62,540 nt of DNA, filler included, from 6 parts of 6 records of this genome joined end to end with filler, not necessarily neighbours in it; one strand, 5' to 3'; positions 4,997 to 55,888 are shown, numbered from the whole stretch's first letter. Translations and numbers: made by a program. Notes: a model not told the origin generated them from the letters alone.

Positions 4997-5512
4997 CAGC
5001 GATCATCCTCAGGTTAGAGAGCTTGCGCTTCTCTCCTATCTCATCGACGCCAAAGGTCTAAAAATTAGAAAACCTAGGTTTCATCGCCTTTTTTATGAAA
5101 AGCGGCATCAATTTCCTTAAATTTATTATAACTTTGACGCCGTGCTCAGCTATTATTTCGACTTAAAAGTCTGACTTTTACGAGATATTAGCTATTTAAG
5201 AATGACTCTTATGGCCGATTTTCTTGACACAGGCCTAGCAAGCTTGCTACTTACGTTATCGACGAGGAGCAATGCAAATCAATCTGTTGATGCGCATCTC
5301 ATTATGTAGACGTAAGTCTTTGTTATTACATCGATAGCTGCTAGGGTTAAATAAAACTAACGCAAAGCAGGGAAAAAACTACACTAGATGTTAACAAAAC
5401 GACGGATTCTATGTATAACGCCCTCGGCTGCATTAAAAAGCTAATTAATTTGTTCTGAAACTGAAACAAGAAAGCTAAACGTTAGATAACTTTCTTCAAA
5501 TAGGGGAAAACG

Positions 5513-10520: not shown

Positions 10521-10620
10521 NNNNNNNNNNNNNNNNNNNNNNNNNNNNNNNNNNNNNNNNNNNNTTAATTAATTAANNNNNNNNNNNNNNNNNNNNNNNN
10601 NNNNNNNNNNNNNNNNNNNN
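10521..10620. other. Artificial contig spacer
   Basis: N44-TTAATTAATTAA-N44, stops in all six frames. Confidence 0.99.
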
Positions 10621-22566: not shown

Positions 22567-22666
22567 NNNNNNNNNNNNNNNNNNNNNNNNNNNNNNNNNN
22601 NNNNNNNNNNTTAATTAATTAANNNNNNNNNNNNNNNNNNNNNNNNNNNNNNNNNNNNNNNNNNNN
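22567..22666. other. Artificial contig spacer
   Basis: N44-TTAATTAATTAA-N44. Confidence 0.99.
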
Positions 22667-22911
22667 TCACCACCAAAATCGGCGTGACCAGGAGTATCGA
22701 TAATATTGATTTTAGACCCTTTATAGGTTACCGAAACATTTTTTGAAGTAATTGTAATACCGCGTTCACGTTCCAAATCATTGTTATCCAGAATCAAATC
22801 GCCTGTATTTTCGTTATCACGAAAAAGATGACAATGGTACATAATCTTGTCTACCAAAGTTGTTTTACCGTGGTCAACGTGGGCGATAATCGCTATATTT
22901 CTGATATCCAT
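22667..22911 (-). CDS. typA: Translational GTPase TypA/BipA, N-terminal fragment
   Basis: [43 protein letters not shown]. Confidence 0.95.
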
Positions 22912-30502: not shown

Positions 30503-30900
30503 GGGGTCGATTTGGTTTTGACAGCGGGTCTAGTTGGATTGTAAGCACGTCGAGCGCTGGGACATAAGCTCGTAAATCTCAGGTTTCATCTTTTTTAAAC
30601 GGCGAGAATAACTACGCCTTGGCTGCATAATCCGAATCACAGTAGGATTGCTTAATCCCTAACGAGGTTAGGGACCAAGATGCCTCCGGAAAGCCTTGGT
30701 TTGCGGCGGTCCACTAGGAGGCACCGTAAATGTAAACATAGCTATCGCAGGATCCTGATGCGGTAGTGAAACTTAATCGGGAATAAGGTATCGCTTGGTA
30801 GTTGCCGACCGGGTGTTGCACGAAAATCAATTGGCAAATAAGCGTGTAGAAAGCTTTTTAGCTGCTTGTTTGGACGGCGGTTCGAGTCCGCCCGACTCCA
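30503..30900 (+). ncRNA. ssrA: tmRNA; tag frame GENNYALAA* at 30601-30630
   Basis: 5' GGGGTCG pairs with 3' CGACTCC-A (G3-U wobble); T-arm GGCGG-TTCGAGT-CCGCC; tag ends YALAA; TATCTTTG promoter element at 30328. Confidence 0.97.
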
Positions 30901-30923
30901 CTTTTTAAGTTTCAAACTTCAAC

Positions 30924-31079: not shown

Positions 31080-32099
31080 TTAATCAGGTGTTTTATACAA
31101 TCCCGCAGCCTGTTCTAACTTGCGTTTTATATTGCGCCTTAACAATCGTGGAGAAAGCACCTCAAGACTTTCTCCAAAACCTAAGAGCAGGCGTTCCAAC
31201 TCATAGTTATGATGCACTATGATAGTAAAGGTTATACTACCATCAGGGTGTTTCTCAATAGTTTTTTGTGATTGGTGAAAAGGCTTAGTTACAATGTACG
31301 GAGCATTCTTTCGATCTACTTTAAACACCACTTTTTGTGGGTGCTCTTTTTCTAAAACGGTCACTCCAATACTGTTTTCGTAATAGCGATCTGCATCATA
31401 TCCTATGGGAATATACTCGGTTTTAAAATCATAATCAATACCTAAAATACGATCTAAGGCAAAGGTGAGTACCCGATCGGTTTCGGTTTTTCTTCCCACC
31501 AGAAACCAGCGGTTATTGAATTCTTTTAGCAAATGCGGATGAAAGATAATTTCGCTGGGGTACTGGGCTTTAAAAGACTGGTAGATCATCTTTAGGACAA
31601 CCTCCTTTAAAATAGCCTTATAAAGTTCATCCAGAAGCTCCAGCCCTTTAAGATCTGTGTTTTTATCCAAATGAATAATGGCTGGTTTATGTGTTTTTTC
31701 GGTATAGATTTTATCTTCTAGTTTATTGATGATCCCTTTAAACTCCTGAAACAAGGAGAAATCCTGAAACTGCTTGAGCATATTCATCGTTTCAGAAAGT
31801 ACATTCATATCATTTTCGGTTAACGGAATATCGGTTATCGTATAATTTGGATCGCTATAGCGATAATACTTTCTATCATACACCTCTATAGGTGCGTGAT
31901 ACCCTAATTTCTCGCTCCGCATCACCTGGATATCGAGCTGTAAAGTACGTTTGCTTATATTCATATCACGACCTTCAAACTCATAAAGTGTGTCATTGCA
32001 AGCTTCCATCAAATCCTGGAGGGTCCACATGCGATAGGGGTTCTGAAGACATTTATCTATCGTTTTATATCGAATCAACGCATTTTTAGTAATAGCCAT
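31080..32099 (-). CDS. WYL-domain transcriptional regulator (wHTH-WYL-WCX)
   Basis: HTH ISKRTLQLDIQVMR; PHLLKEFNNRWFLVG...FALDRI; C-terminal LLGFGESLEVLSP. Confidence 0.93.
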   Translation of the reverse strand: MAITKNALIRYKTIDKCLQNPYRMWTLQDLMEACNDTLYEFEGRDMNISKRTLQLDIQVMRSEKLGYHAPIEVYDRKYYRYSDPNYTITDIPLTENDMNVLSETMNMLKQFQDFSLFQEFKGIINKLEDKIYTEKTHKPAIIHLDKNTDLKGLELLDELYKAILKEVVLKMIYQSFKAQYPSEIIFHPHLLKEFNNRWFLVGRKTETDRVLTFALDRILGIDYDFKTEYIPIGYDADRYYENSIGVTVLEKEHPQKVVFKVDRKNAPYIVTKPFHQSQKTIEKHPDGSITFTIIVHHNYELERLLLGFGESLEVLSPRLLRRNIKRKLEQAAGLYKTPD

Positions 32100-32133
32100 T
32101 TCTGAAATATTTGAGGAAAAATAAGAGAAAAAA

Positions 32134-32162
32134 ACTACTACGCAAAAACATTGCGCAATAGT
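32134..32162. promoter_or_regulatory. Candidate WYL operator between divergent WYL and rtcB
   Basis: ACTACTACGCAA-aaaca-TTGCGCAATAGT, arms 10/12 complementary. Confidence 0.65.
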
Positions 32163-32239
32163 GTATGCATATTTGTAGTGTAGTTAAGCATGAGGCTGTA
32201 TTTGGAATCTGGCCTTTTCTTACATGTAGTGCCCCGTAG

Positions 32240-33670
<1,431 letters not shown>

Positions 33671-40995: not shown

Positions 40996-41095
40996 NNNNN
41001 NNNNNNNNNNNNNNNNNNNNNNNNNNNNNNNNNNNNNNNTTAATTAATTAANNNNNNNNNNNNNNNNNNNNNNNNNNNNNNNNNNNNNNNNNNNN
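40996..41095. other. Artificial contig spacer
   Basis: N44-TTAATTAATTAA-N44. Confidence 0.99.
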
Positions 41096-45205: not shown

Positions 45206-45305
45206 NNNNNNNNNNNNNNNNNNNNNNNNNNNNNNNNNNNNNNNNNNNNTTAATTAATTAANNNNNNNNNNNNNNNNNNNNNNNNNNNNNNNNNNNNNNN
45301 NNNNN
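45206..45305. other. Artificial contig spacer
   Basis: N44-TTAATTAATTAA-N44. Confidence 0.99.
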
Positions 45306-45360
45306 GACGAAAATCGACTTTTTTGACAGCCTCTTGAAAATAGACACTTAACTTAACCTA

Positions 45361-45990
45361 TTATGCATTTAAGATGGCATGTAATTCTTTAGCGGCTGCG
45401 GCAGGATCTGCTGCACCATAAATGGCTGCTCCGGCTACGGCTACGACTACGCCAGCCTCTTTAACGGCTTTAATACTATCCTTATTTACACCGCCTGCAA
45501 TAGATACCGGTACACCAGCTCGTGCTGCCTCGTCTATTAACACCTGAATAGAGTAACCCGCTTCTGCTTGCTCATCCAGACCAGCATGTAATTCTACAAA
45601 TTCAACGCCCAATGCGGTTACTTCCTGTGCCCGTTTTACACGGTCTTTTACTCCTATGGTATCTACGACTACCGCTCTACCATATTCTTTAGCAGCTTTT
45701 ACGGCACCCACGATAGTCGAGTCTCCTGTAGCTCCTAAAATGGTGATATAATCTGCTCCTGCTTTAAAAGCCATACCAGCCTCTAACTCGCCAGCATCTG
45801 CTGTTTTAAAATCAGCAAAAACCATTTTATCTGGAAATGCTTTTTTCATTGCGGTAATAGCCGATAAGCCTTCGCTTTTAATAAGCGGTGTTCCCAGTTC
45901 TATAATGTCGATATAAGGTGCCACTTTTGTTGCCAAGGCAATGGCGTCTTCTATGCTTAATAAATCGATTGCTACTTGTAATTTAGCCAT
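45361..45990 (-). CDS. hxlA: 3-hexulose-6-phosphate synthase
   Basis: LQVAIDL, IIELGTPLIKSEG, ADFKTADAG, HAGLDEQ; adjacent to SIS isomerase. Confidence 0.93.
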   Translation of the reverse strand: MAKLQVAIDLLSIEDAIALATKVAPYIDIIELGTPLIKSEGLSAITAMKKAFPDKMVFADFKTADAGELEAGMAFKAGADYITILGATGDSTIVGAVKAAKEYGRAVVVDTIGVKDRVKRAQEVTALGVEFVELHAGLDEQAEAGYSIQVLIDEAARAGVPVSIAGGVNKDSIKAVKEAGVVVAVAGAAIYGAADPAAAAKELHAILNA

Positions 45991-46033
45991 AATGTTATCT
46001 TTAAATAATTGTTATAAATGAGGTAAATGTGTT

Positions 46034-46618
46034 CTATTCTAAGTTGGCGTGTCGCTTCCATAATTCGGATGCAGTACTCCCGTCCAGATCCCATAGGGCT
46101 TGTATGAGGGCATCAAAAACCAATAAAAGGGCTTGCTCAAAGAGGCTTCCTGCATATTGCGTAGAAATCTCTGTATTCTGTTTCTGCTTCTCTGCTGCGG
46201 GGATGGTAACTGTAAAGTCAGCCAAGGAGGCTACTGGTGAATGGGCGTCTGTGGTAAAACATACGATGCTGGCTGCTACGGTTTGGGCTTTTTCGGCAGC
46301 GCGTACAATACTACTGGTGGTACCTGACCCAGAACCGGCAAGCAATACATCGCCTTTGGTAATTGCCGGAGTGGTCGTCTCGCCCACAACATAGGCTTTA
46401 AAACCCAAATGCATTAAACGCATTGCGGCTGCTTTCATCATGAGTCCGCTGCGCCCCATCCCCATTAAAAAAACAGCATTCGCTTGTTTTATAACCGGGA
46501 TGATGGCCGCAATTTCATCATATCGAATCTGATCACGAAGTTTGAGGTGTTCTTCTAAGATAGTGGTCATCGCGTTAGTCACGAGTTGTTCTAAATCTTT
46601 GTCAATTGTGTGTTCCAT
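46034..46618 (-). CDS. hxlB: 6-phospho-3-hexuloisomerase
   Basis: GMGRSG, AMRLMHLG, VGETTTP, SGSG, GSLFEQ, RHANLE. Confidence 0.93.
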   Translation of the reverse strand: MEHTIDKDLEQLVTNAMTTILEEHLKLRDQIRYDEIAAIIPVIKQANAVFLMGMGRSGLMMKAAAMRLMHLGFKAYVVGETTTPAITKGDVLLAGSGSGTTSSIVRAAEKAQTVAASIVCFTTDAHSPVASLADFTVTIPAAEKQKQNTEISTQYAGSLFEQALLLVFDALIQALWDLDGSTASELWKRHANLE

Positions 46619-46690
46619 AGCTTGTTAGATCAAAGGCAATACAGTACCAAAATGCCGATACAAAGCTACGGGTAGACGCAGGCGTACAGG

Positions 46691-46775
46691 TTATACTATT
46701 TGGTAGATAAGTGGTACAATTTGCCAATAACCCTTAAAGTGGTGTTAATATGCTCTACTTTTATGGTACATTTTG
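46691..46775. promoter_or_regulatory. Direct repeats, candidate AraC-family binding sites
   Basis: TTATACTATTTG (46691), TGGTACAATTTG (46712, 21-bp period), TGGTACATTTTG (46764). Confidence 0.5.
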
Positions 46776-46834
46776 GAAACAGCTGGTTTATCTTTAAAAA
46801 CCAAAACCTTAACTTCCATTAAAAAACGATTCGT

Positions 46835-47677
46835 ATGCTTAGTGATCAGGTGTTGTATATACGCGATTTAGCCAATTGTCCGCCTTCCTATCTGGATGAC
46901 CCGGGACGTAAAGAGTTTTTTGAAATCGTGTGGTTGCATGATGAAGAAGCGCTGCACAAACCGCAACACAACTTTCAAACCTTAGTAGGCGACTGGATGT
47001 ATTTGATTCCTCCCTATCGCGTACATCAATTGAATAAAGCTGGTAAAAAAGGCGTATTGATTTCCTTTAAACAAGAGTTGCTGGAAGGTGACCTGAAAGA
47101 GTTTTTACTGGATGTGTTTCGTATGTTCAATATACAAGGGGAGTTTTCATGCTTGCAAGTAAATGAAGAAAGCGCCAAAGGATTGGTCTCTGTTTTTACA
47201 CTTTTAGAAGAAGAATACAAGCAAGAAACCTTTAATATGATTATGATAAAGGCCTTGCTTAAAGTGTTTCTTTTAAAATTGATCCAGTTAAAAGAGCAGC
47301 ATTTTACCTTACAAGATCTTAATGAAAAACGCGTGTATGCGTTTATGATGTTACTGGAAAACAATTATCAAGACGAACGAAATGCAGATTTTTATGCAGG
47401 CGAATTAGGGATTAGTCCCAAGCGCTTAAATCAAATTCTCAAGGAGAAATTAGCTAAAACCAGTGTGCAACTTATACACGACCGATTAATTCTAGAGGCT
47501 AAACGCCAAATTATACACAGTGAAAATACCATCAAAGAAATTGCCTATAAGCTGCAGTTTAAAGATCACTCCTATTTCAGTCGGTTTTTTAAATTACATA
47601 CGCAGCAAACCCCTCAAGAGTTTCAAAATAATGTAAAAGCGCATGTGATCGCTCATGAAAACACCTTGTATGTTTAA
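46835..47677 (+). CDS. AraC-family regulator divergent from hxlBA
   Basis: YAGELGISPKRLN...RLILEAKR...IKEIAY.L.FKDHSYFSRFFK. Confidence 0.92.
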   Translation: MLSDQVLYIRDLANCPPSYLDDPGRKEFFEIVWLHDEEALHKPQHNFQTLVGDWMYLIPPYRVHQLNKAGKKGVLISFKQELLEGDLKEFLLDVFRMFNIQGEFSCLQVNEESAKGLVSVFTLLEEEYKQETFNMIMIKALLKVFLLKLIQLKEQHFTLQDLNEKRVYAFMMLLENNYQDERNADFYAGELGISPKRLNQILKEKLAKTSVQLIHDRLILEAKRQIIHSENTIKEIAYKLQFKDHSYFSRFFKLHTQQTPQEFQNNVKAHVIAHENTLYV

Positions 47678-47815
47678 TTTTATAGCGCTTACGGTCTAAA
47701 CACAAATTAAAAAGAATGAAAAATACAATAATCCTTATCATGCTGGTTTTATGCTACACCATCGGTTCTAGTCAAAATAACAATGAAAAGGTTCTATAAA
47801 CACGTTGTGCATACT

Positions 47816-48380
47816 ATGAGAAATGTCCTGCCTCTATTACTTCTTCTTAATTTTTTGAGTTGTTTTTCTCAAGAAATTATGGACGTGGCATTAGCTGACA
47901 AAACAAAACTGATTAGTGAGAATGTTTATCAATTTCACTTAAAAACCAACAAATGGGATATTAAAAATTATCTCTACACACTTGATGAACAGCAAGTAAA
48001 AATTGACTCGCTGACCTTTGTTGAGCTTATACATAAAACCATAGAACAAGACCCCGAAAAATGGAGAAAAAGGGATTTTAAAAACATTTATCTCATTAAA
48101 AAAGGAGAAAAACTTTCATCAAAAAAGGTTTTATCTGAATTAGGTATCTATGACAATAAACAAATAAAATTAATAAAACGACAAATAAAACAATATAACA
48201 ACCGCCCAAATGAATGGAAAGGTTGGCCTTTGTCAATTTCCAAACCTATTTTTTTCAAATGACAACCAATTTTGCATCATCGGATTTGAATTTGGAAACA
48301 ATGGAGGATACACAGAATTATATAAAAGGTCTGAATCTGAATGGAAACAGATGGGAATATTCAACCGATTTGCATATTAA
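47816..48380 (+). pseudogene. Exported hypothetical protein, frameshifted at a T7 run (cassette 1)
   Basis: Signal peptide ending CFS/Q; removing one T at 48249-48255 gives ...SKPIFSNDNQFCIIG...NRFAY* ending at 48380. Confidence 0.7.
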
Positions 48381-48389
48381 AAAGCCAGC

Positions 48390-48527
48390 ACACAACATTG
48401 ACTTTAAGCCATAACTCTTGCCCTAATTAATACCTGTAAACCAACAAATAAGAAAACAACAGGCTTTTCCTACACAAATTATTTCTCATAAAATAATTAC
48501 CTTGTTGGGCATATAAACAAGTTGTGC
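48390..48527. repeat. attC-like imperfect palindrome 1 (138 bp)
   Basis: Left CACAAC-ATTG-ACTTTAAGCC; right GGCATATAAA-CAA-GTTGTG; starts about 10 nt after a stop codon. Confidence 0.65.
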
Positions 48528-48736
48528 ATAATGCGGAAAATCGAGCAAAACAATAAAATGTCGTACCGCAAAGCCAACCGCACAGTCAAGCACATTTCAT
48601 TTTTTTCGTGCCTCAAAAAATAAAAAGAGCTTGCCTTTTCCCACCACTCACTTTTTAGTATGATGATTTTAATACTCATTTAGTGAGATATTTAAAATAG
48701 TTCTTTACATTAGCGGACTGAATAAAAAATTCAAAA

Positions 48737-48937
48737 ATGAACCGAATAAAAGAGGTTTTAGAAATAAAAGGAATTAAACAGATCTGGTTAGCTGAACAAT
48801 TAGGTAAAAGTTATAATATGGTTAATTCTTATGTGCAGAATAGAAGACAACCTAGTATAGAAGATTTATTTAAAATAGCTAAAATATTAGGTGTGGAAGC
48901 ATCAGAACTAATAAATAACTCAAAATCTAATGATTGA
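48737..48937 (+). CDS. XRE HTH protein, candidate R-M controller
   Basis: MNRIKEVL..KGIKQIWLAEQLGKSYNMVNSYVQNRRQPS; overlaps MTase start. Confidence 0.88.
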   Translation: MNRIKEVLEIKGIKQIWLAEQLGKSYNMVNSYVQNRRQPSIEDLFKIAKILGVEASELINNSKSND

Positions 48938-50123
48938 AACTAAAATAAAATTAAAAAGTTCTGTTCAGTTCATTAAATATATGGGGTCAAAAACAAAATT
49001 ACTCCCATTTGTAATAAATGGCATTGAAGAAGCTTATAATGGTGGCGTCATTTGTGACTTATTTGCTGGTTCTTGTTCTCTCTCAGGAGCAATAGGGGAA
49101 CAATTCCCTATTGTTTCTAATGATATTCAAGCATATTCTTCGGTCATTGCTAAAGCCTATTTAACAGATTGGAATGATTGTAAAGTTAATTCCAAAATGG
49201 TAATGGAAATAGCCAAAGAATATCATAAAAAACATTATTCAACTTTATTGAACGATTTAAGACATACGGAGAATAGTAGTCTAAAAGAATTTAACAGAAT
49301 TGAAAAATTAAACCAAAATTTAATAAATCAAGAGTTCGACAATACCTGGCATTTGTTTACTAAAAATTATTCAGGTACTTGGTGGAGTGCAGAACAATGT
49401 ACTTGGATCGACTCAATTCGGAAAGCCATTGAAGACCTAAAAGCAAACCCAGCATATAACACGATGCTTGGGGCGTTAATGTATGCGATGGCATATAATA
49501 GTCAGGGTACTGGACATTACGCACAATATAGAGACGCAAAAACTGATTCTTCTATGAAAGATATTTTAATCTATAGAAAGAAAAGTATAATTGATTATTT
49601 TGAGCGTAAACTTGATTCTGCACTAGAAGCACTCCCTTCAATTCAACCTAAACTAAAGCACGAGGTTTATACATTAGATTACTTGGATTGTCTTAAAAAT
49701 TTAAAAAGCGCTACAGTTTATGCTGATCCGCCCTATTGTTTTGTTCATTATAGCAGGTTTTATCACGCAATAGAAACTTTAGTTTTATATGATTATCCTG
49801 AAATACAACACAAAAATAAAAAAATGGTAAAAGGACGTTATCGAGAAGATAGACATCAATCTCCTTTTAGCATTAAGTCGAAAGTAAAAAATGCTTTTAT
49901 CGATATGTTTGAAATTATAGCAAAAAATAACTCTTCATTAGTTCTTAGCTATAGTGATACAGGAATGATTGAAATTGATGACTTACTAAAAATTACTAAA
50001 GAAGTATTTAAGAAACATACCGTTTCTGTCAAGACTCTTGATTATACCCATATGACTATGGGGCGTAAAGGTGATAGAGACCGAATGGTCAAAGAAAAAT
50101 TAATAATTGTAAAACCTATATAA
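48930..50123 (+). CDS. DNA amino-methyltransferase (D12/Dam-like, probably m6A)
   Basis: KYMGSK, motif I DLFAGSC, motif IV YADPPY (alpha order). Confidence 0.9.
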   Translation: MIETKIKLKSSVQFIKYMGSKTKLLPFVINGIEEAYNGGVICDLFAGSCSLSGAIGEQFPIVSNDIQAYSSVIAKAYLTDWNDCKVNSKMVMEIAKEYHKKHYSTLLNDLRHTENSSLKEFNRIEKLNQNLINQEFDNTWHLFTKNYSGTWWSAEQCTWIDSIRKAIEDLKANPAYNTMLGALMYAMAYNSQGTGHYAQYRDAKTDSSMKDILIYRKKSIIDYFERKLDSALEALPSIQPKLKHEVYTLDYLDCLKNLKSATVYADPPYCFVHYSRFYHAIETLVLYDYPEIQHKNKKMVKGRYREDRHQSPFSIKSKVKNAFIDMFEIIAKNNSSLVLSYSDTGMIEIDDLLKITKEVFKKHTVSVKTLDYTHMTMGRKGDRDRMVKEKLIIVKPI

Positions 50124-50124
50124 T

Positions 50125-51768
50125 ATGGCTATTGGACTTGATGGACACACAGTTTCATTAACAAAAAACGGATATTTTAAATTAGTCAGTTTAATTAAAA
50201 AATATCCTAGTACAGAGATACTTAATCATTTAGATGAGATAAAGCTAGACAGTACACAGGCTAGAAAAATGCTAGCAGGAGATAAAAATAATGTATTACC
50301 AAATGCTTGGGACTCAGTCAGAAAATTTGATAATGCGAGTCAGTACGCCTTACTACTTGTTTCAATTATTTATAGCCATAAAGATTTAATTGAACTTTTC
50401 AAAAACTCAACAAATTTGGAAATGCAAGGTGTAATTTACAGAAAAGACACTGATGGCAAAACATATACAAACTTAGCATATGCCTTAAATGAGGCAGGTG
50501 TCGCTACTGATTTCAGTGCAGGTAGTGATAAAACATCTTACGATTTTACACCAATTCTAGCTAAGAATGAGATTGGACCATTGGCAAAAGAAATATTGAG
50601 TGGACATCTTAAAAATATGGGATGGTTTGAACCTAGTTCAAATGAACCTTTTCAAAGAGATTTCTATGAACAACTGAATTCTTATGAATTGAATAAAGTC
50701 CTTGGTTTATCCTTTATACAATTTCAAGAATGGCTTGAAGGTAAGAATGTTGCTAAAACAATTAGTAATATATCATTATTTAATACTAGGAAAACAATCT
50801 ATTTTGGTGCACCTGGAACGGGTAAATCATATAAAGTAAAGGAAATTTTAAAAGAAAAAGGAGATAGAACAAAAAGAATAACATTTCATCCAGAATATGA
50901 TTACGCTTCTTTTATAGGAGGTTTCAAACCAATATCTGAAAAAGACCCAATTTCTGGGCTAGATGAAATCAAATACAAATTTGTTCCACAAATATTTACA
51001 AATATTTATATTGATGCTTGGCAAAATGAATTTCAAGATTATTTCTTAGTAATTGAAGAAATTAACAGAGGAAACTGTGCCGAAATCTTTGGAGATACAT
51101 TTCAATTATTAGATGAAGGTTATGAAATTACACCTTCAAACGAGTTAGCTAGTCATTTAGAAAAAGAGCTAACTGAAAAAGGTTATAATGGGTTTGTAAA
51201 TGGTAAAATGCAATTACCATCAAACCTAAGTTTATTAGCCACTATGAATACTTCTGACCAATCTTTATTTCCTATGGATAGTGCATTCAAAAGAAGATGG
51301 GATTGGGAATATATACCTATTTGTTATACACCAATTGACGATTTTAATAAGAAAAATGTTTCATTCGATTTCAAAATTGATATTGCAGATGGCAATGAAT
51401 ATAGCTGGATTAAATTTATTGAAAAAATAAACTTAAATCATATAAAAAACAATCAGTCATTAGGTATGGATAAATGTATTGGTAATTATTTTATGAAACC
51501 AGATACAGATAAAACAATATCATTAAATCCATTTATAAACAAAGTAATTTTCTATTTATGGAATGACGTTTTCAAAGATGAAGAAAATAAAGTGTTTGAA
51601 GAAAACACTTCATACGAAGATTTCTTTCCAATGGATATTAAAGGCAAAACAAAAATCAAAGAATTATTCGACAGAATAGAATTAAAACCTATCCAAAACT
51701 TAGAGATTAAAGAAGATGACGCTCAACTTAGGCAAGTGGCAGAAGATAAAGAAGGACTTGATTCTTAA
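50125..51768 (+). CDS. McrB-like AAA+ GTPase with unrecognised N-terminal domain
   Basis: GAPGTGKS, ITFHPEYDYASFIGGFKP, IEEINRG, ATMNTSD, MDSAFKRRW. Confidence 0.92.
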   Translation: MAIGLDGHTVSLTKNGYFKLVSLIKKYPSTEILNHLDEIKLDSTQARKMLAGDKNNVLPNAWDSVRKFDNASQYALLLVSIIYSHKDLIELFKNSTNLEMQGVIYRKDTDGKTYTNLAYALNEAGVATDFSAGSDKTSYDFTPILAKNEIGPLAKEILSGHLKNMGWFEPSSNEPFQRDFYEQLNSYELNKVLGLSFIQFQEWLEGKNVAKTISNISLFNTRKTIYFGAPGTGKSYKVKEILKEKGDRTKRITFHPEYDYASFIGGFKPISEKDPISGLDEIKYKFVPQIFTNIYIDAWQNEFQDYFLVIEEINRGNCAEIFGDTFQLLDEGYEITPSNELASHLEKELTEKGYNGFVNGKMQLPSNLSLLATMNTSDQSLFPMDSAFKRRWDWEYIPICYTPIDDFNKKNVSFDFKIDIADGNEYSWIKFIEKINLNHIKNNQSLGMDKCIGNYFMKPDTDKTISLNPFINKVIFYLWNDVFKDEENKVFEENTSYEDFFPMDIKGKTKIKELFDRIELKPIQNLEIKEDDAQLRQVAEDKEGLDS

Positions 51769-51770
51769 AA

Positions 51771-53459
51771 ATGAAAATACTAATTGAAAACGAAATATAT
51801 CCGATTGAATTACTTCAAGAAGTGTTCGCTGACCCAAAATTTTATAAACAAAACGGTTTAGATGGGACAATTACCTCTGTAGGATATTACCATTCTTTTG
51901 AGAAAAATAGTTTGGTGTTTATGTTACCAAAAGTTTTTATGAAGGAAGAAAATAAAACTGTTTTTGGTTGTTCAAAAAAAGAATTAGTAGATTTAATTTT
52001 AGATGAATCCATAAAACATAAAACACAATATAATTGGGTTCGCCAATTATCCGTACATTTTTATAAAAGTCTAATTGAGTTCAGAAAGAGATCCGATGAT
52101 ACATCTATAATTCATAATATCGAAACTTTTGAATTAAACACAAATTTAAACCTTAAAGAATATTCTTATCTAGATCTATTACTGTCTTTCGTAAATTTTT
52201 ACAAAAAGAATAAAAACCATATTTTATATAAACATATTGAGTACAATTCAAACCAAGCAATAAAACCAAAATGGGAAAAAACAATAAGAAAATCATTACC
52301 CATTCTAAATTCAAATAATATACCTATCTATGTTTCAATAAGAAATAAAATAAAAACTGTAAATACAGAAGAAGAATTATTGACATACTTTTTTTCTATT
52401 CTAAACAACTTCAACCACGTACATAAACTTAATTTAAGAATTGATAAATCATTTTCAATAATAAAGGGTAAGTCATTTAAAAATCTTCAATCAAATGGTC
52501 TTTCTAAACTACGAAAAATCAAGTATCGATATTTTAATGACACTTTAAAGAGAATGTACACCTTATGTGAAATATATTTTTCTCAAACAGATAAGAGTAG
52601 CTCAAAAAGAAAAAGGGAGGATTTTTTATCGGTAAATAATTATAATATCGTATTTGAAGATATGGTAGATAAATTATTCTCTGACGAGTTAAATGATACT
52701 GAAGTAAACAATGTATCTCTTAAAGATTTGAAAAAAAATGACGATGGGAAGATAATTGACCATATTTATGACTATCAGTCCATTATAGACACTAGCAATA
52801 TTTTTTATATTGGAGATTCAAAATATTACAAATCAAATAGTGAAGCAGGGAAATTATCTAAATATAAGCAATTCACGTATGCGAAAAATGTTATTCAGTT
52901 CAATATAGATTTATTGAATGAAGATAAGGATAAGCCTTATAAAAAGAGTATTAAATATAGAGACGAAATAACAGAAGGTTATAATATTACACCTAACTTT
53001 TTCATTTATGGTTATATAGAAGATGAAGATAATTTTGATGAACACTTGATTGAAAAAAAGACAGAATTACCAATCAAATCTTATCATTTTAAAGAACGGT
53101 TATTTGATAGAGACACGCTTTTTGTTCATCAGTATAAAATTAATTTTTTGTACGTTTTAAAAGCATACACTAGCTTTAATTCAACAAATACTCAAGAGTT
53201 CAGAAAGGAAGTAAAAAGAGGCTTTAGAAAACATTTTATTGACTTCTTTAATAATTCTAAAAGCTGTGAGTTTGAGTTCTATAAATGCAAATCTAAAACA
53301 GAAGAAAAATATAAATCTATTGTAACGGACAATTTTAAATCCTTAAATGGTAAATGTTATGTGAATATGGAAAATGAATTAATTTTAGCGAAACATATTG
53401 AAGACACTATAGTTAAATCTATTATGGACGAGTTTGAAGTAATGACTGAATTACTATAA
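51771..53459 (+). CDS. LlaJI-family / McrC-like restriction endonuclease subunit
   Basis: VFEDMVD, IIDHIY...IGDSKYYK...KQFTYA, a PD-(D/E)xK-type core; follows McrB-like gene. Confidence 0.82.
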   Translation: MKILIENEIYPIELLQEVFADPKFYKQNGLDGTITSVGYYHSFEKNSLVFMLPKVFMKEENKTVFGCSKKELVDLILDESIKHKTQYNWVRQLSVHFYKSLIEFRKRSDDTSIIHNIETFELNTNLNLKEYSYLDLLLSFVNFYKKNKNHILYKHIEYNSNQAIKPKWEKTIRKSLPILNSNNIPIYVSIRNKIKTVNTEEELLTYFFSILNNFNHVHKLNLRIDKSFSIIKGKSFKNLQSNGLSKLRKIKYRYFNDTLKRMYTLCEIYFSQTDKSSSKRKREDFLSVNNYNIVFEDMVDKLFSDELNDTEVNNVSLKDLKKNDDGKIIDHIYDYQSIIDTSNIFYIGDSKYYKSNSEAGKLSKYKQFTYAKNVIQFNIDLLNEDKDKPYKKSIKYRDEITEGYNITPNFFIYGYIEDEDNFDEHLIEKKTELPIKSYHFKERLFDRDTLFVHQYKINFLYVLKAYTSFNSTNTQEFRKEVKRGFRKHFIDFFNNSKSCEFEFYKCKSKTEEKYKSIVTDNFKSLNGKCYVNMENELILAKHIEDTIVKSIMDEFEVMTELL

Positions 53460-53606
53460 ATAAGCCAACACTCAAAGTCATACACATTCGCAATTCGCGT
53501 CAGCCAACGCTACACCAAAAATCGCAAAAGAGTATGTCTCGCCAACGCTCAATTCCGAACTAAACAAGAAACATCGGAAAACAAAGCTGTACGTGAAAAG
53601 CACTAT

Positions 53607-53798
53607 GCACAACAACGTGTATAAAACATAGCTATTATAGGCTTTTCGAGAGGTTATTGCTTATTTGAAGTACGCCAAATTTTTAATTTTATATATTTAG
53701 AAAAGAAAATTAAACATTAAAAAAAAAATCGGCTCGTTCTAAATCCGAAAAGTTAGCGTTTATTTATACGCTACGTTTCATACACAATACCGTTGACA
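53607..53798. repeat. attC-like imperfect palindrome 2 (192 bp)
   Basis: Left CAAC-AAC-GTGTATAAAACATAGC; right GCTACGTTTCATACAC-AATACC-GTTG; two A.C mismatches become T.G on bottom strand. Confidence 0.75.
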
Positions 53799-53845
53799 GT
53801 AATTATGACCCGTCCTGAAATATGTATACACTAAACAACAAGTAT

Positions 53846-54211
53846 ATGTATAAAAATGATGGATATGTAAGACGCTATAGCGAAAGCTTTAAACTCAAAG
53901 TCCTTGACGAACTTTCCAAGGGAAACCACTCTAAAAGACAAATAGGACTGCTCTATGGCATACAGCCAAGCACTATTAACGAATGGATTAAAAAGTACAA
54001 TCGTAAAGATTTAATGAACACCCGCGTACTCGTGCAAACAGACGATGAACTTACCCGAATAAAAGCCCTGCAAAAGGAGCTCAAACAGCTAAAGGAACTT
54101 CTCATAAAGAAAGACCTAGATAAACTTATTGATGATAGTTATCTCAAAGTAGCGGCTAATAAATTAGGCTATAAAGATGTTTTAGAACTTAAAAAAAAAC
54201 TAAACATCTAG
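53846..54211 (+). CDS. IS3 transposase OrfA (HTH)
   Basis: RRYSESFKLKVL..YGIQPSTINEWIKKY; A9 run at 54191-54199 gives an open -1 frame into OrfB. Confidence 0.9.
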   Translation: MYKNDGYVRRYSESFKLKVLDELSKGNHSKRQIGLLYGIQPSTINEWIKKYNRKDLMNTRVLVQTDDELTRIKALQKELKQLKELLIKKDLDKLIDDSYLKVAANKLGYKDVLELKKKLNI

Positions 54212-54216
54212 CACTA

Positions 54217-55074
54217 ATGGAAACTATAGACAATAACCCAAAAGAAATACCCTTTAGCATCTTCACTATTTGCAAGGGATATGACTTGACTCGTGATGCA
54301 TTTTATAAATACAAAAAACGATTTGTCAAGCGAATAAAAATTGAAAATCAGGTATTGGAAATCGTTCACAAAAGAAGAAGGACATTACCCAGAGAAGGCG
54401 CTCGAAAGTTGATGCACTCACTAAAAATGGACTTTGAGAAACACAATATCAAAATAGGTAGAGACCAGTTATTATGTATCCTTAGAGATAATGACCTATT
54501 AATACGGAGAAAGAAATATTCCTCCAGGACAACCAATTCACATCATAGGTTTTACAAATATAAAAACAGTATTAAAGAAGTAGAAATAAATAGACCAAAC
54601 CAAGTCTGGGCAGCAGACATAACATACATCAGAACCATAAAAGGATTTTGTTACTTAGCGCTATTAACCGATATGTACTCGCGTAAAATCGTAGGATATG
54701 ACCTAAGTGATAGCTTAGAACTAACAGGCTGTGTAAGGGCTCTTAAAAAGGCATTGTATCATAATACAGAACTGAGGAACCTGACGCACCACTCAGACAG
54801 AGGAATACAGTATTGCAGTAATGTATACACCAAAGAACTCAAGAGAAAGAAGATAGAAATCAGTATGACAGAGGAAAATCATTGTTATGAAAACGCTCTC
54901 GCAGAACGTGTAAATGGAATACTAAAAGATGAATTTTATCTCGACCAGACCTTTGCTAGTGTGGAAGAGGCAAAAAGAGCAACCAAAAATGCAATCAAAT
55001 TATACAACTCTAAAAGATTACATTTATCTTTAGACTATAAAATACCTAATAACGTGCACCAAAATGCAGCTTAA
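54217..55074 (+). CDS. IS3 transposase OrfB (DDE)
   Basis: PNQVWAADITYI, HHSDRGIQY, ENALAERVNGILKDE. Confidence 0.95.
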   Translation: METIDNNPKEIPFSIFTICKGYDLTRDAFYKYKKRFVKRIKIENQVLEIVHKRRRTLPREGARKLMHSLKMDFEKHNIKIGRDQLLCILRDNDLLIRRKKYSSRTTNSHHRFYKYKNSIKEVEINRPNQVWAADITYIRTIKGFCYLALLTDMYSRKIVGYDLSDSLELTGCVRALKKALYHNTELRNLTHHSDRGIQYCSNVYTKELKRKKIEISMTEENHCYENALAERVNGILKDEFYLDQTFASVEEAKRATKNAIKLYNSKRLHLSLDYKIPNNVHQNAA

Positions 55075-55150
55075 TTTTAATCAATAACCTGTAGACGTAT
55101 TTTAGGACGAGACATTATAATAAAATCGAAAATTTAACAAAATTGAATTT

Positions 55151-55717
55151 ATGTGTTTATCTACAATTTCCTTATTCGTATCAATTTTTGCTCTAGGTTT
55201 TTCAATTTATATATTTTGGGAAAATAATTTCCGTATAAAAAACACAGTTGCTTTAGGTAAAGATGCAAAATTAATAGTTGTTGAAAATCAACCTTCAATC
55301 TTATTAAATTTAGCTATAATCAACACTGGTGGGAAAACTAGTTTTATTGAAAATATAAAAATCATTTTGAAACTTACAAAAAAGGGAAACGTTTTTTTGA
55401 CAAACGAAATGTATTTAAAAAGAGAATTTACAGGCTCTTTTGATAATTTAGTAAATGATTATATTTTTAATGAAATATCACCAATAGTTATTATTGGAAA
55501 AACATTTATTACAAAAAAGTATTTATTCACACCTAATATAAAAATCCAACAAGACAATATAGAAAACCAATTTGATATTGAAATAATATTGTATTCAAAA
55601 GAGAACAATAAATGGAAAAAACAAAAAAGTTATGTTTCCAAAAATGTATCAGAAATTTGGCATGATTTAAATGCTGTAAGAAATAAAAATACCATAATAG
55701 AGTTGGACGAAAAATAA
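55151..55717 (+). CDS. AT-rich hypothetical protein with N-terminal TM helix (cassette 3)
   Basis: ISLFVSIFALGFSIYIFW anchor; AGCTAAC follows the stop. Confidence 0.7.
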   Translation: MCLSTISLFVSIFALGFSIYIFWENNFRIKNTVALGKDAKLIVVENQPSILLNLAIINTGGKTSFIENIKIILKLTKKGNVFLTNEMYLKREFTGSFDNLVNDYIFNEISPIVIIGKTFITKKYLFTPNIKIQQDNIENQFDIEIILYSKENNKWKKQKSYVSKNVSEIWHDLNAVRNKNTIIELDEK

Positions 55718-55721
55718 CAAA

Positions 55722-55777
55722 AGCTAACAAAGACGTATTTAATTTATGGCTAGTTCTAGCCTACTTACGAAAATCCT
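55722..55777. repeat. Probable left arm of attC-like site 3, cut by contig end
   Basis: AGCTAAC 5 nt after stop; contig then ends in CACTTCGACAA, the reverse complement of a REP core. Confidence 0.45.
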
Positions 55778-55788
55778 CACTTCGACAA

Positions 55789-55888
55789 NNNNNNNNNNNN
55801 NNNNNNNNNNNNNNNNNNNNNNNNNNNNNNNNTTAATTAATTAANNNNNNNNNNNNNNNNNNNNNNNNNNNNNNNNNNNNNNNNNNNN
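55789..55888. other. Artificial contig spacer
   Basis: N44-TTAATTAATTAA-N44. Confidence 0.99.

Follow-up and report, generated by a model that had tools for sequence, protein, structure and literature searches.

The question raised by this locus is whether a complete defence operon can be packaged and moved as one cassette of a recombination array. The locus lies in a 62.5-kb window, the term used here for the whole stretch of DNA analysed, and comprises four co-oriented genes between positions 48522 and 53792 (Table 1). An earlier sequence-only reading of this region had proposed that the genes form a defence operon with self-complementary ends, moved by site-specific recombination. The evidence described below indicates that this region is very probably a single mobile cassette of an integron-like, recombinase-associated array of marine Flavobacteriaceae, the cargo of which is a complete LlaJI-type restriction-modification (R-M) system.

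The four genes overlap or abut on the + strand and encode, in order, a small helix-turn-helix (HTH) protein, a D12-class methylase and two restriction subunits, R1 and R2. The methylase gene overlaps that of the HTH protein and abuts that of R1. In addition to the matches given in Table 1, R1 matched the NCBIfam McrB model in part and the McrB GTPases 6ut3 and 6hz4 of the PDB. Residues 225-520 of R1 were 66% identical to the R1 protein of a Cellulophaga omnivescoria locus (L014; L numbers denote loci), and residues 1-224 were without similarity to it. From this pattern, the N-terminal 224 residues are likely to be the specificity domain. No Pfam or PADLOC family was found for R2, the residues D330, D349 and K351 of which are shared by all 12 sequences aligned, with identities as low as 38%. 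Homologues of the cassette proteins come from Flavobacteriaceae. The four-gene defence operon proposed earlier can thus be named more precisely, given that the Pfam, PADLOC, NCBIfam, UniRef and PDB matches are those of an LlaJI-type R-M system in one cassette.

Upstream of the HTH gene lies a conserved leader, with a mean column identity of 77% over six aligned orthologous leaders. It contains a candidate operator palindrome (48647-48690), the right half of which, TACTCATTTAGTGAG, is invariant in all six leaders, and the left half of which is kept only in the three closest. Self-regulation of the cassette by the HTH protein is likely, on the basis of the HTH gene and the conserved palindrome only. 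A leader module at 48565-48640 was considered as a general cassette element and rejected, since it was found only in orthologous R-M leaders. A scan for sigma-70 promoters returned fewer matches than shuffled sequences, sigma-70 being the wrong promoter type for this phylum.

The R-M cassette is 5,271 nucleotides (nt) long, with an attC-like hairpin site of 192 nt at its distal end. The names of the R and L boxes and the attC consensus are those of the integron literature, and the site has the attC-type box order R''/L''...L'/R' with AAC/GTT cores. Its start arm, GTTGTGCATAATGC (48521-48534), and its distal arm, GCACTATGCACAAC (53600-53613), are complementary at 13 of 14 positions, located and counted as the sequence-only reading had claimed, and the reverse complement of one differs from the other at 1 position of 14. 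These two arms are the only matches to the 14-mer with 0-1 mismatches in 62.5 kb. The G at 48521 is part of the R' box of the upstream site, and the start motif's first ten bases recur a third time, in direct orientation, at 47804 (GTTGTGCATACTAT), 717 nt upstream. The poor pairing claimed for the closing arm with its current partner was likewise found: the R'' arm pairs with GTTGACAGTAATTA at 7 of 14 positions. The non-coding trailer that precedes the site (53460-53599) is conserved across genera and also precedes the site of a different, TonB-type cargo in L014 (4692-5025). A scan of 47600-55788 with Rfam gave a single chance-level match (E 0.37) and nothing for the trailer.

To what extent these ends are shared was apparent from other genomes. 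Here, R2 served as the query in a scan of one genome per species, and 53 R2 loci were obtained. The locus from Mariniflexile sp. AS56 (L001) matches window positions 48513-53795 at 97.2% over 5,290 nt, with both flanks unrelated; similarity begins at the left GTTG and ends at the right GTTG (53795), and the AS56 operon is the second cassette after the recombinase gene in a run of co-oriented open reading frames (ORFs). A 95% relative in a Flavobacteriaceae metagenome-assembled genome (L002) has the same left end (start arm GTTGTGCACAATGC). Because this start lies 33 nt after the stop codon of a tyrosine recombinase gene, the cassette is regarded as first in line; its right end is replaced from the equivalent of 53582 onward. 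Contigs of four marine metagenome runs, from four studies, cover 48521-53795 at about 98% identity and almost nothing outside. They stop or change at 53787-53795, and from 53787-53794 they continue into three sequences that differ from each other; a further GTTG start arm opens one of these. The expectation that homologous operons would share these ends and have other neighbours was therefore borne out in at least three genomes plus metagenome contigs.

The chromosomal backbone beside the window array had no match in the AS56 genome, and was found at 71-76% identity in only 5 of 301 family genomes, in each of which the sequence after the AraC gene is different. Given that a near-identical cassette is present in hosts with different backbones, the cassette has moved horizontally between hosts. 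Eight joints were listed in the metagenome contigs. Because these are short-sided (20-45 nt) and fall within repeats or the loop of the site, they are read as the shorter sites of other cassettes. A word screen of 24 Logan contig runs found none with half of the words.

The relationship between the two ends was assessed by scoring the first 14 nt of a cassette against a distal R'' arm, out of 14, a score of at least 11 being considered good. In all 16 hand-defined cassettes (11 from L001, four from L014 and that of the window), the start paired with the cassette's own R'' arm at 11-13 positions (mean 12.5). The same arms scored a mean of 7.3 and a maximum of 10 against their present partners, and 234 non-own combinations gave a mean of 7.0, with nine reaching 11. 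Of 32 additional pairs, taken consecutively from two extended arrays, 28 scored at least 11, and the pooled result was 44 good pairs of 48. Among the 48 pairs 39 are distinct, and the 35 that are both distinct and good have 32 different cores. Stem positions 4-9 are each occupied by two to four different bases and are matched in 35 of 35 good distinct cassettes. At stem position 11 the start arm always carries A, opposite C in 32 of 35 cases, which is a mismatch on the top strand and a T·G pair on the bottom strand; this pair would favour the bottom strand. Compensatory changes in the stem were also observed in the orthologous R-M cassettes at L014, L030 and L028. The Cellulophaga arms are GTTGTGTGTAATGC with ACACTACACACAAC, and the Wocania and Mesonia arms are quite different from those of the window, yet are paired at 12 of 14 positions.

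Folding of the site gave a similar picture. The rejoined site had a predicted energy of -31.3 kcal/mol on the bottom strand (z -5.9 versus mononucleotide shuffles) and -26.1 on the top, and the integrated site one of -22.2 kcal/mol on the bottom strand and -19.9 on the top. The inner stem, compared over 12 sites, comprises 17 conserved bottom-strand pairs, 12 of which have changes on both sides, and three of its columns are G·U pairs that would be A·C on the top strand; the outer stem covaries. The earlier proposal that the cassette's own stem is broken when integrated and restored in the excised circle thus holds for 44 of 48 cassettes, with full covariation and the stronger fold of the rejoined site. 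The fourth base of GTTR is the latest point at which the crossover can fall. GTT itself is invariant, and the integron position, G/TT, fits and is inferred to be the crossover.

The context in which such cassettes occur is best seen in AS56. Between the co-oriented ORFs of the L001 array lie repeats, some of about 132 nt and others of about 195 nt. Each begins with an arm that has AAC at its end, followed by a 3-nt spacer, a box (e.g. GTGTAT), a variable centre, the complementary box ATACAC, a 5-7-nt spacer and GTT. The array continues for at least 18 kb more, with at least 27 sites, has a GC content of 0.294 and holds PoNi and SUFU immunity-type genes. A second array in the same genome has at least 18 sites and is headed by an identical copy of the recombinase (copies at G001:C1:2019444-2020580 and 3273688-3274824; L001 and L060). 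Some cassettes are present in both arrays, for example one of 954 nt and the GTTGCCAACCATTT unit. The protein that heads these arrays is a tyrosine recombinase of 379 residues. Its best 120 homologues are all from Flavobacteriaceae, at 54% identity or more, and full-length relatives (E 1e-60 or better) were present in 172 of 301 sampled genomes of the family. By self-BLAST repeat counts, 14 of 18 regions downstream of such genes carry at least five direct-repeat places and almost no inverted ones.

Much of this would also be expected of a canonical integron cassette, or of a remnant cluster of attC sites lacking an integron-integrase (CALIN), for which an IntI encoded elsewhere in the genome would act and the Xer-like recombinases would be bystanders. 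The attC layout is present, with AAC/GTT cores, R and L boxes, unequal spacers and bottom-strand-only G·T pairs, and the second-best NCBIfam match of the recombinase is the integron-integrase model TIGR02249, at 196 bits in two pieces. However, none of the 29 matches to this model in AS56 reached its cut-off of 265 bits, and the two best are the array-head recombinases themselves. When aligned with IntI4 (2a3v), recombinase residues 110-283 correspond to 7-181 and residues 307-376 to 248-317, leaving 23 residues opposite 66; by contrast, the protein is collinear with XerA (5hxy) and an XerC-like protein (4a8e). The stretch missing relative to IntI4 is the place of the IntI-specific helix. About 110 N-terminal residues of the recombinase lie outside the IntI4 and Xer alignments. 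Furthermore, recombinase and repeat arrays are found together in 14 of the 18 sampled genomes, and the available part of the IntegronFinder 2.0 report (PMC9024848) gives for Bacteroidetes In0 elements only and one complete integron, in Salinibacter. Involvement of a canonical integron is, on balance, quite improbable. The idea of a large, self-regulated anti-phage module moved site-specifically thus stands as regards the shared ends, the other neighbours and the split stem, with the qualification that the system is not a canonical integron, since the recombinase that heads related arrays has no IntI insertion.

An exchange of cargo by homologous recombination between similar repeats, with the hairpin symmetry being that of a terminator or protein-binding site, would fit the finding that the repeats (130-200 nt) are alike enough to break assemblies, the window's contig itself ending in one at 55788. 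Many recombinase matches sit at contig ends, metagenome contig depth is several-fold higher over the trailer and site, and L014 has the same trailer and site with another cargo. Nevertheless, such recombination would not keep the first 14 nt of a cassette matched to its own arm, at positions 4-9 that match in every good distinct cassette and differ between cassettes, and at either end the window and L001 cease to be homologous only a few bases from GTT. We consider this explanation improbable. That the operon is a fixed defence island, or is carried by an IS3-family insertion sequence (IS), with the 13/14 inverted repeat a coincidence, is suggested by the IS3-family element 14 nt from the right end, by the low GC content (0.289 versus 0.409 for the backbone) and by the motif at three mismatches being no rarer than chance. 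Yet the element occurs once and outside the cassette, flanked by a 3-bp duplication of its own; in L001 the same ends are present and no IS is; and other genera show the inverted repeat again, with compensatory changes, so that this is by far the least probable of the explanations considered. An IS3 composite transposon was rejected given the single copy outside the cassette.

Several observations weigh against a mobile cassette of a recombinase-associated array, or limit the weight of the evidence for it. At three mismatches or fewer the 14-mer had 12 matches in the window, versus 6.9 ± 2.6 in shuffles. Both units that adjoin the R-M cassette pair poorly: on the left, only 7 of 14 positions pair between the cassette start and the R'' arm of the same cassette, AGCCAGCACACAAC, and on the right, only 8 of 14 pair between the unit's R'' arm and the start at 53792. 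Nine of the 48 scored pairs are repeats of one cassette in two arrays or genomes and hence are not independent, and four of the 48 break the own-start rule, possibly as a result of missed sites or rearrangements. Compared with dinucleotide shuffles, the integrated sites showed no stronger fold (z -0.57 and -0.36), and the fold controls for the rejoined site were mononucleotide shuffles only. No recombinase gene was found on the 10.5-kb contig or in the whole window, so the window copy may be stranded. The link between recombinase and array was drawn from 20 recombinase loci chosen by hand from long contigs (74-41% identity), of which 18 had downstream regions of at least 6 kb. The site detector was built from the motif that it then counts, and a generic motif detector, too strict and noisy, failed on most of the 20 loci. 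Contigs of the four metagenome runs contained no 53792-48522 joint and no 48521-53793 joint, rare forms being invisible in contigs, and an empty site was not obtainable from related chromosomes, the backbone of which is too distant (5 of 301 genomes, 71-76% identity). Finally, 46 of the 53 R2-homologue loci show no site after the gene.

If the region is a mobile cassette, the following minimal model can be proposed. The Xer-like tyrosine recombinase encoded at the head of an array would cut G/TT of the R' box in folded hairpins, probably of the bottom strand. The cassette would leave as a circle, in which its first ~14 nt would re-pair with the R'' arm of its own site, and the circle would re-enter at the recombinase-adjacent site or at another hairpin site. 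The D12 methylase would mark host adenines, the N-terminal domain of R1 would read unmethylated sites, the McrB-like GTPase would translocate DNA and R2 would cut with a PD-(D/E)xK-type centre; the small HTH protein would time expression from the operator in the cassette leader. The cassette may still be mobile at the present day, and its products would be expected to restrict phage DNA.

Comparison of the R-M cassettes with one another revealed that a block from the end of the HTH gene to R1 residue 224 is swapped among them (about 48916-50792 in the window, compared with L002:3953-7375 and L014:6272-9097). The methylases differ accordingly in kind: the window has one D12 enzyme, L002 two D12 enzymes, and L014 one N6/N4 and one C5 enzyme. 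Replacement of the methylase together with the N-terminal block of R1 looks, from these alignments, like an exchange of restriction specificity. The start arm, 330-nt trailer and site of the window's R-M cassette are also those of a 4.2-kb cassette in Cellulophaga omnivescoria (L014:847-5022), the cargo of which is a different set of four genes, for DUF6660, a TonB-dependent receptor, a Fur-family regulator and a PEMT/ICMT-like methyltransferase. Judged by sequence, this is one cassette frame with two operons. The left half of the site was found within 400 nt after the gene at 7 of the 53 R2 loci (chance about 0.005 per 400 nt, from the control strand). Because only these seven carry it, the operon would appear to reside mostly outside arrays, with one lineage having become a cassette. 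In Mesonia mobilis, a 4.9-kb LlaJI-type cassette (L028:2749-7612) is bounded by the start arm GTTACCTGCAAGCT and the R'' arm AGCCAGCAGGTAAC, paired at 12 of 14 positions, and a further LlaJI-type operon is located inside an array in Mesohalobacter halotolerans (L035).

The shortest of the 48 cassettes has 361 nt and the longest 6,167 nt; the median is near 950 nt, against which the R-M cassette is unusually large, in keeping with the earlier reading's figure of under about 1 kb for typical cassettes. The three R-M cassettes are the largest, at 5,271, 5,278 and 6,167 nt (the last from Cellulophaga), followed by a 4,175-nt Cellulophaga unit and a unit of 4,045 nt. The latter, a cassette of AS56 array 1 (L059:4451-8251, - strand), contains a single ORF of 1,266 residues with no Pfam family.

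The likeness to integrons is considerable. Cassettes are co-oriented, and an imperfect palindrome bearing AAC...GTT cores ends each of them; as would follow from a G/TT crossover, the opening bases of a cassette are part of that cassette's own site; and there are signs of bottom-strand use. A tyrosine recombinase stands at the head of arrays that number dozens of cassettes, and type II/IV restriction is among the defence cargo, as it is in the available text of a preprint on integron defence cassettes (Darracq et al., 10.1101/2024.07.02.601686). On the other hand, the recombinase is Xer-like, without the IntI insertion and with the extra N-terminal part of ~110 residues, and is co-oriented with the cassettes. 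The split stem is of 14 nt, not 7, and sites are of about 132 or about 195 nt. The host family is without reported integrons in the part of PMC9024848 available. According to the same portion of the Darracq preprint, integron defence cassettes are compact: type II and IV systems prevail among them, and no long loci occur. The R-M cassette (5.3 kb, four genes, a likely regulator of its own) runs against the compaction described there. The legend of a review figure likewise describes integron cassettes as generally single ORFs, sometimes two or none. The system is not classified here as an integron because the defining integrase feature, looked for in related arrays, was absent.

The nearest described system, compared by the description of its architecture in the available passages of a preprint, is rAID-1 of Bacteroidales (Ross et al., 10.1101/471110). 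It consists of a 5' XerD-like recombinase gene, co-directional low-GC genes and intergenic repeats 'reminiscent of integrons'. The criteria given in those passages are a recombinase more than 44% identical to BF9343_RS08045 and at least two co-directional genes with a GC content of 41% or less and repetitive intergenic sequences. The L001 array fits the gene-direction, GC and repeat criteria; the window matches in GC, with no recombinase on its contig. In those passages rAID-1 is a system of gut Bacteroidales with immunity genes, and no recombination site, crossover or cassette boundaries are given, whereas the arrays described here are from marine Flavobacteriaceae, carry an R-M operon and have base-exact boundaries. 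Literature searches listed no paper on attC-like arrays in Flavobacteriaceae.

As regards the cargo, the parts of the LlaJI report that were available (O'Driscoll et al. 2006, PMC1459862) describe, in Lactococcus lactis, an R1 protein with an McrB-like GTPase in its C-terminal half and a unique, specificity-determining N-terminal half, an R2 protein with a PD...(D/E)xK nuclease motif, and an enzyme that restricts unmethylated DNA. The window operon has the same co-oriented layout of methylase, R1 and R2, and its R1 combines a C-terminal McrB-like GTPase with an unrelated N-terminal half, which is the LlaJI-type arrangement. LlaJI as described there has two 5-methylcytosine methylases and no separate HTH gene, whereas the window has one D12 adenine methylase and a likely controller (C) protein; the relatives at L002 and L014 have two methylases, of other classes.

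The units on either side of the R-M cassette were also analysed. Related chromosomes (HPS-PHI-AraC) are homologous to the contig as far as the stop codon of AraC, at 47677. The sequence AAAAC ACC TTGTAT at the AraC end was considered as an attC and rejected, since the same codons are kept in relatives without arrays. A short ORF at 47717-47797 with a signal-peptide-like start (MKNTIILIMLVL...) ends at the first array junction and may be a gene cut off by the array. The small cassette that follows has a degenerate attC-like site at 48383-48527, with a fold no better than that of shuffles, and no Pfam, PADLOC or NCBIfam family was found for its ORF. To the right, the IS3-family element interrupts the next cassette 14 nt in from its start. 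It matched the NCBIfam transpos_IS3 model at 230 bits (cut-off 160), its terminal inverted repeats agree at 20 of the first 25 positions, and it is flanked by a TTA target duplication (3 bp; 53803-53805 and 55115-55117). The ORF of 188 residues beyond it (55151-55717) belongs to no known family in Pfam, PADLOC or NCBIfam. Window positions 55734-55778 match attC-like sites of L001 at three places, and an N linker follows from 55789. To judge from these remains, the window's piece of the array is partly decayed.

The R-M cassette lies on a contig of 10,483 nt (45306-55788), in which genes for a hexulose-phosphate synthase, a SIS-domain protein and an AraC regulator (GC 0.409) are followed by a low-GC stretch (0.24-0.35) to the contig end; the window cassettes have GC contents of 0.289-0.308, that of the R-M region being 0.289. 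The window is a chain of contigs, not one molecule, with linkers of the form N44-TTAATTAATTAA-N44. Because the contigs are concatenated, genes separated by a linker are not necessarily neighbours. Several other contigs carry SurA-PdxA-KsgA-ApaG-ApaH, MCP, AcnB and CreD, gene sets known from Gammaproteobacteria. With these sets on the one hand and the Flavobacteriaceae relatives of 45306-55788 on the other, the contigs of the window look taxonomically mixed. Another contig has a tmRNA gene (tag GENNYALAA; 30503-30901), adjoined by a WYL/WCX regulator and RtcB ligase (31080-33670). A 98-residue fragment of elongation factor Tu (22615-22911) spans the TTAATTAATTAA core and second N run of a linker (22623-22666) and continues into the next contig; it is probably either an artefact of ORF calling across N or a gene cut by an assembly break.

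Table 1. Features of the R-M cassette, its neighbours and the window (window positions; HTH, helix-turn-helix; ORF, open reading frame)
Feature	Position	Strand	Details
First detectable array junction	47795-47817	+	L'-like box, spacer AAACAC, GTT, start arm GTTGTGCATACTAT; 80% direct repeat of 48512-48541
Small decayed left cassette, 717 nt	47805-48521	+	ORF 47816-48262, out-of-frame continuation to 48414; GC 0.308
Start arm of R-M cassette	48521-48534	+	Homology with L001 and L002 begins here
Conserved leader with candidate operator palindrome	48535-48736	+	ACTCACT 48647-48653; AGTGAGA 48682-48688
HTH protein, likely controller (C) protein, 66 aa	48737-48937	+	Pfam HTH_3 E 3e-11; PADLOC Control_protein E 4.1e-5
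D12-class N6-adenine DNA methyltransferase, 397 aa	48930-50123	+	Pfam PF02086 E 4.4e-17; PADLOC MTase_II E 9.9e-33
R1, McrB-like AAA+ GTPase subunit, 547 aa	50125-51768	+	Pfam AAA_5, residues 227-391; PADLOC REase_II E 2.8e-43
R2, LlaJI.R2-like nuclease subunit, 562 aa	51771-53459	+	UniRef homologues named LlaJI (family) restriction endonuclease
Conserved non-coding trailer	53460-53599	+	Three GCCAAC(G) repeats; kept after R2 in L001, L002, L014, L026 and L030
attC-like site	53600-53798	+	R'' arm 53600-53613, spacer AAC, L'' GTGTAT 53617-53622, AT-rich loop
attC-like site, right half		+	L' ATACAC 53780-53785, spacer AATACC, R' GTT from 53792
Start arm of next cassette (GTTGACAGTAATTA), present partner of R-M site	53792-53805	+	Resembles the GTTGGCAGTAATAA and GTTGCCAGTAATAT start arms in L001
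IS3-family element, 1,309 nt	53806-55114	+	orfA 53822-54211, orfB 54217-55074; Pfam HTH_Tnp_1 and rve
Rest of interrupted right unit	55115-55788	+	ORF 55151-55717 (188 aa), then half attC-like site to contig end
Linkers (N44-TTAATTAATTAA-N44)	10521-10620, 22567-22666, 40996-41095, 45206-45305, 55789-55888		

Integron-type capture is thought to depend on an IntI-specific domain and to favour small, compact cassettes. The present analysis points to the same site logic with a plain Xer-like enzyme, carrying a whole four-gene, probably self-regulated defence operon of 5.3 kb, and implies that arrays can move whole, self-contained defence operons. It also provides base-exact boundaries and a testable site model for rAID-type arrays of Bacteroidota, a model that is directly testable in Mariniflexile sp. 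AS56, which is cultured and has a complete genome with two arrays. Given that the cassette is 97-98% identical where backbones differ, a route is suggested by which restriction specificities spread among marine flavobacteria. A broader possibility, for and against which we consider the chances evenly balanced, is that over half of the sampled Flavobacteriaceae species possess a second, independent kind of integron, with an Xer-like recombinase that has no IntI domain, bottom-strand hairpins and a 14-bp split stem, which moves self-regulated operons of 4-6 kb, including LlaJI-type R-M systems with the methylase-plus-reader block swapped in a constant frame. If this is true, the array system would be a marketplace for restriction specificities in the sea.

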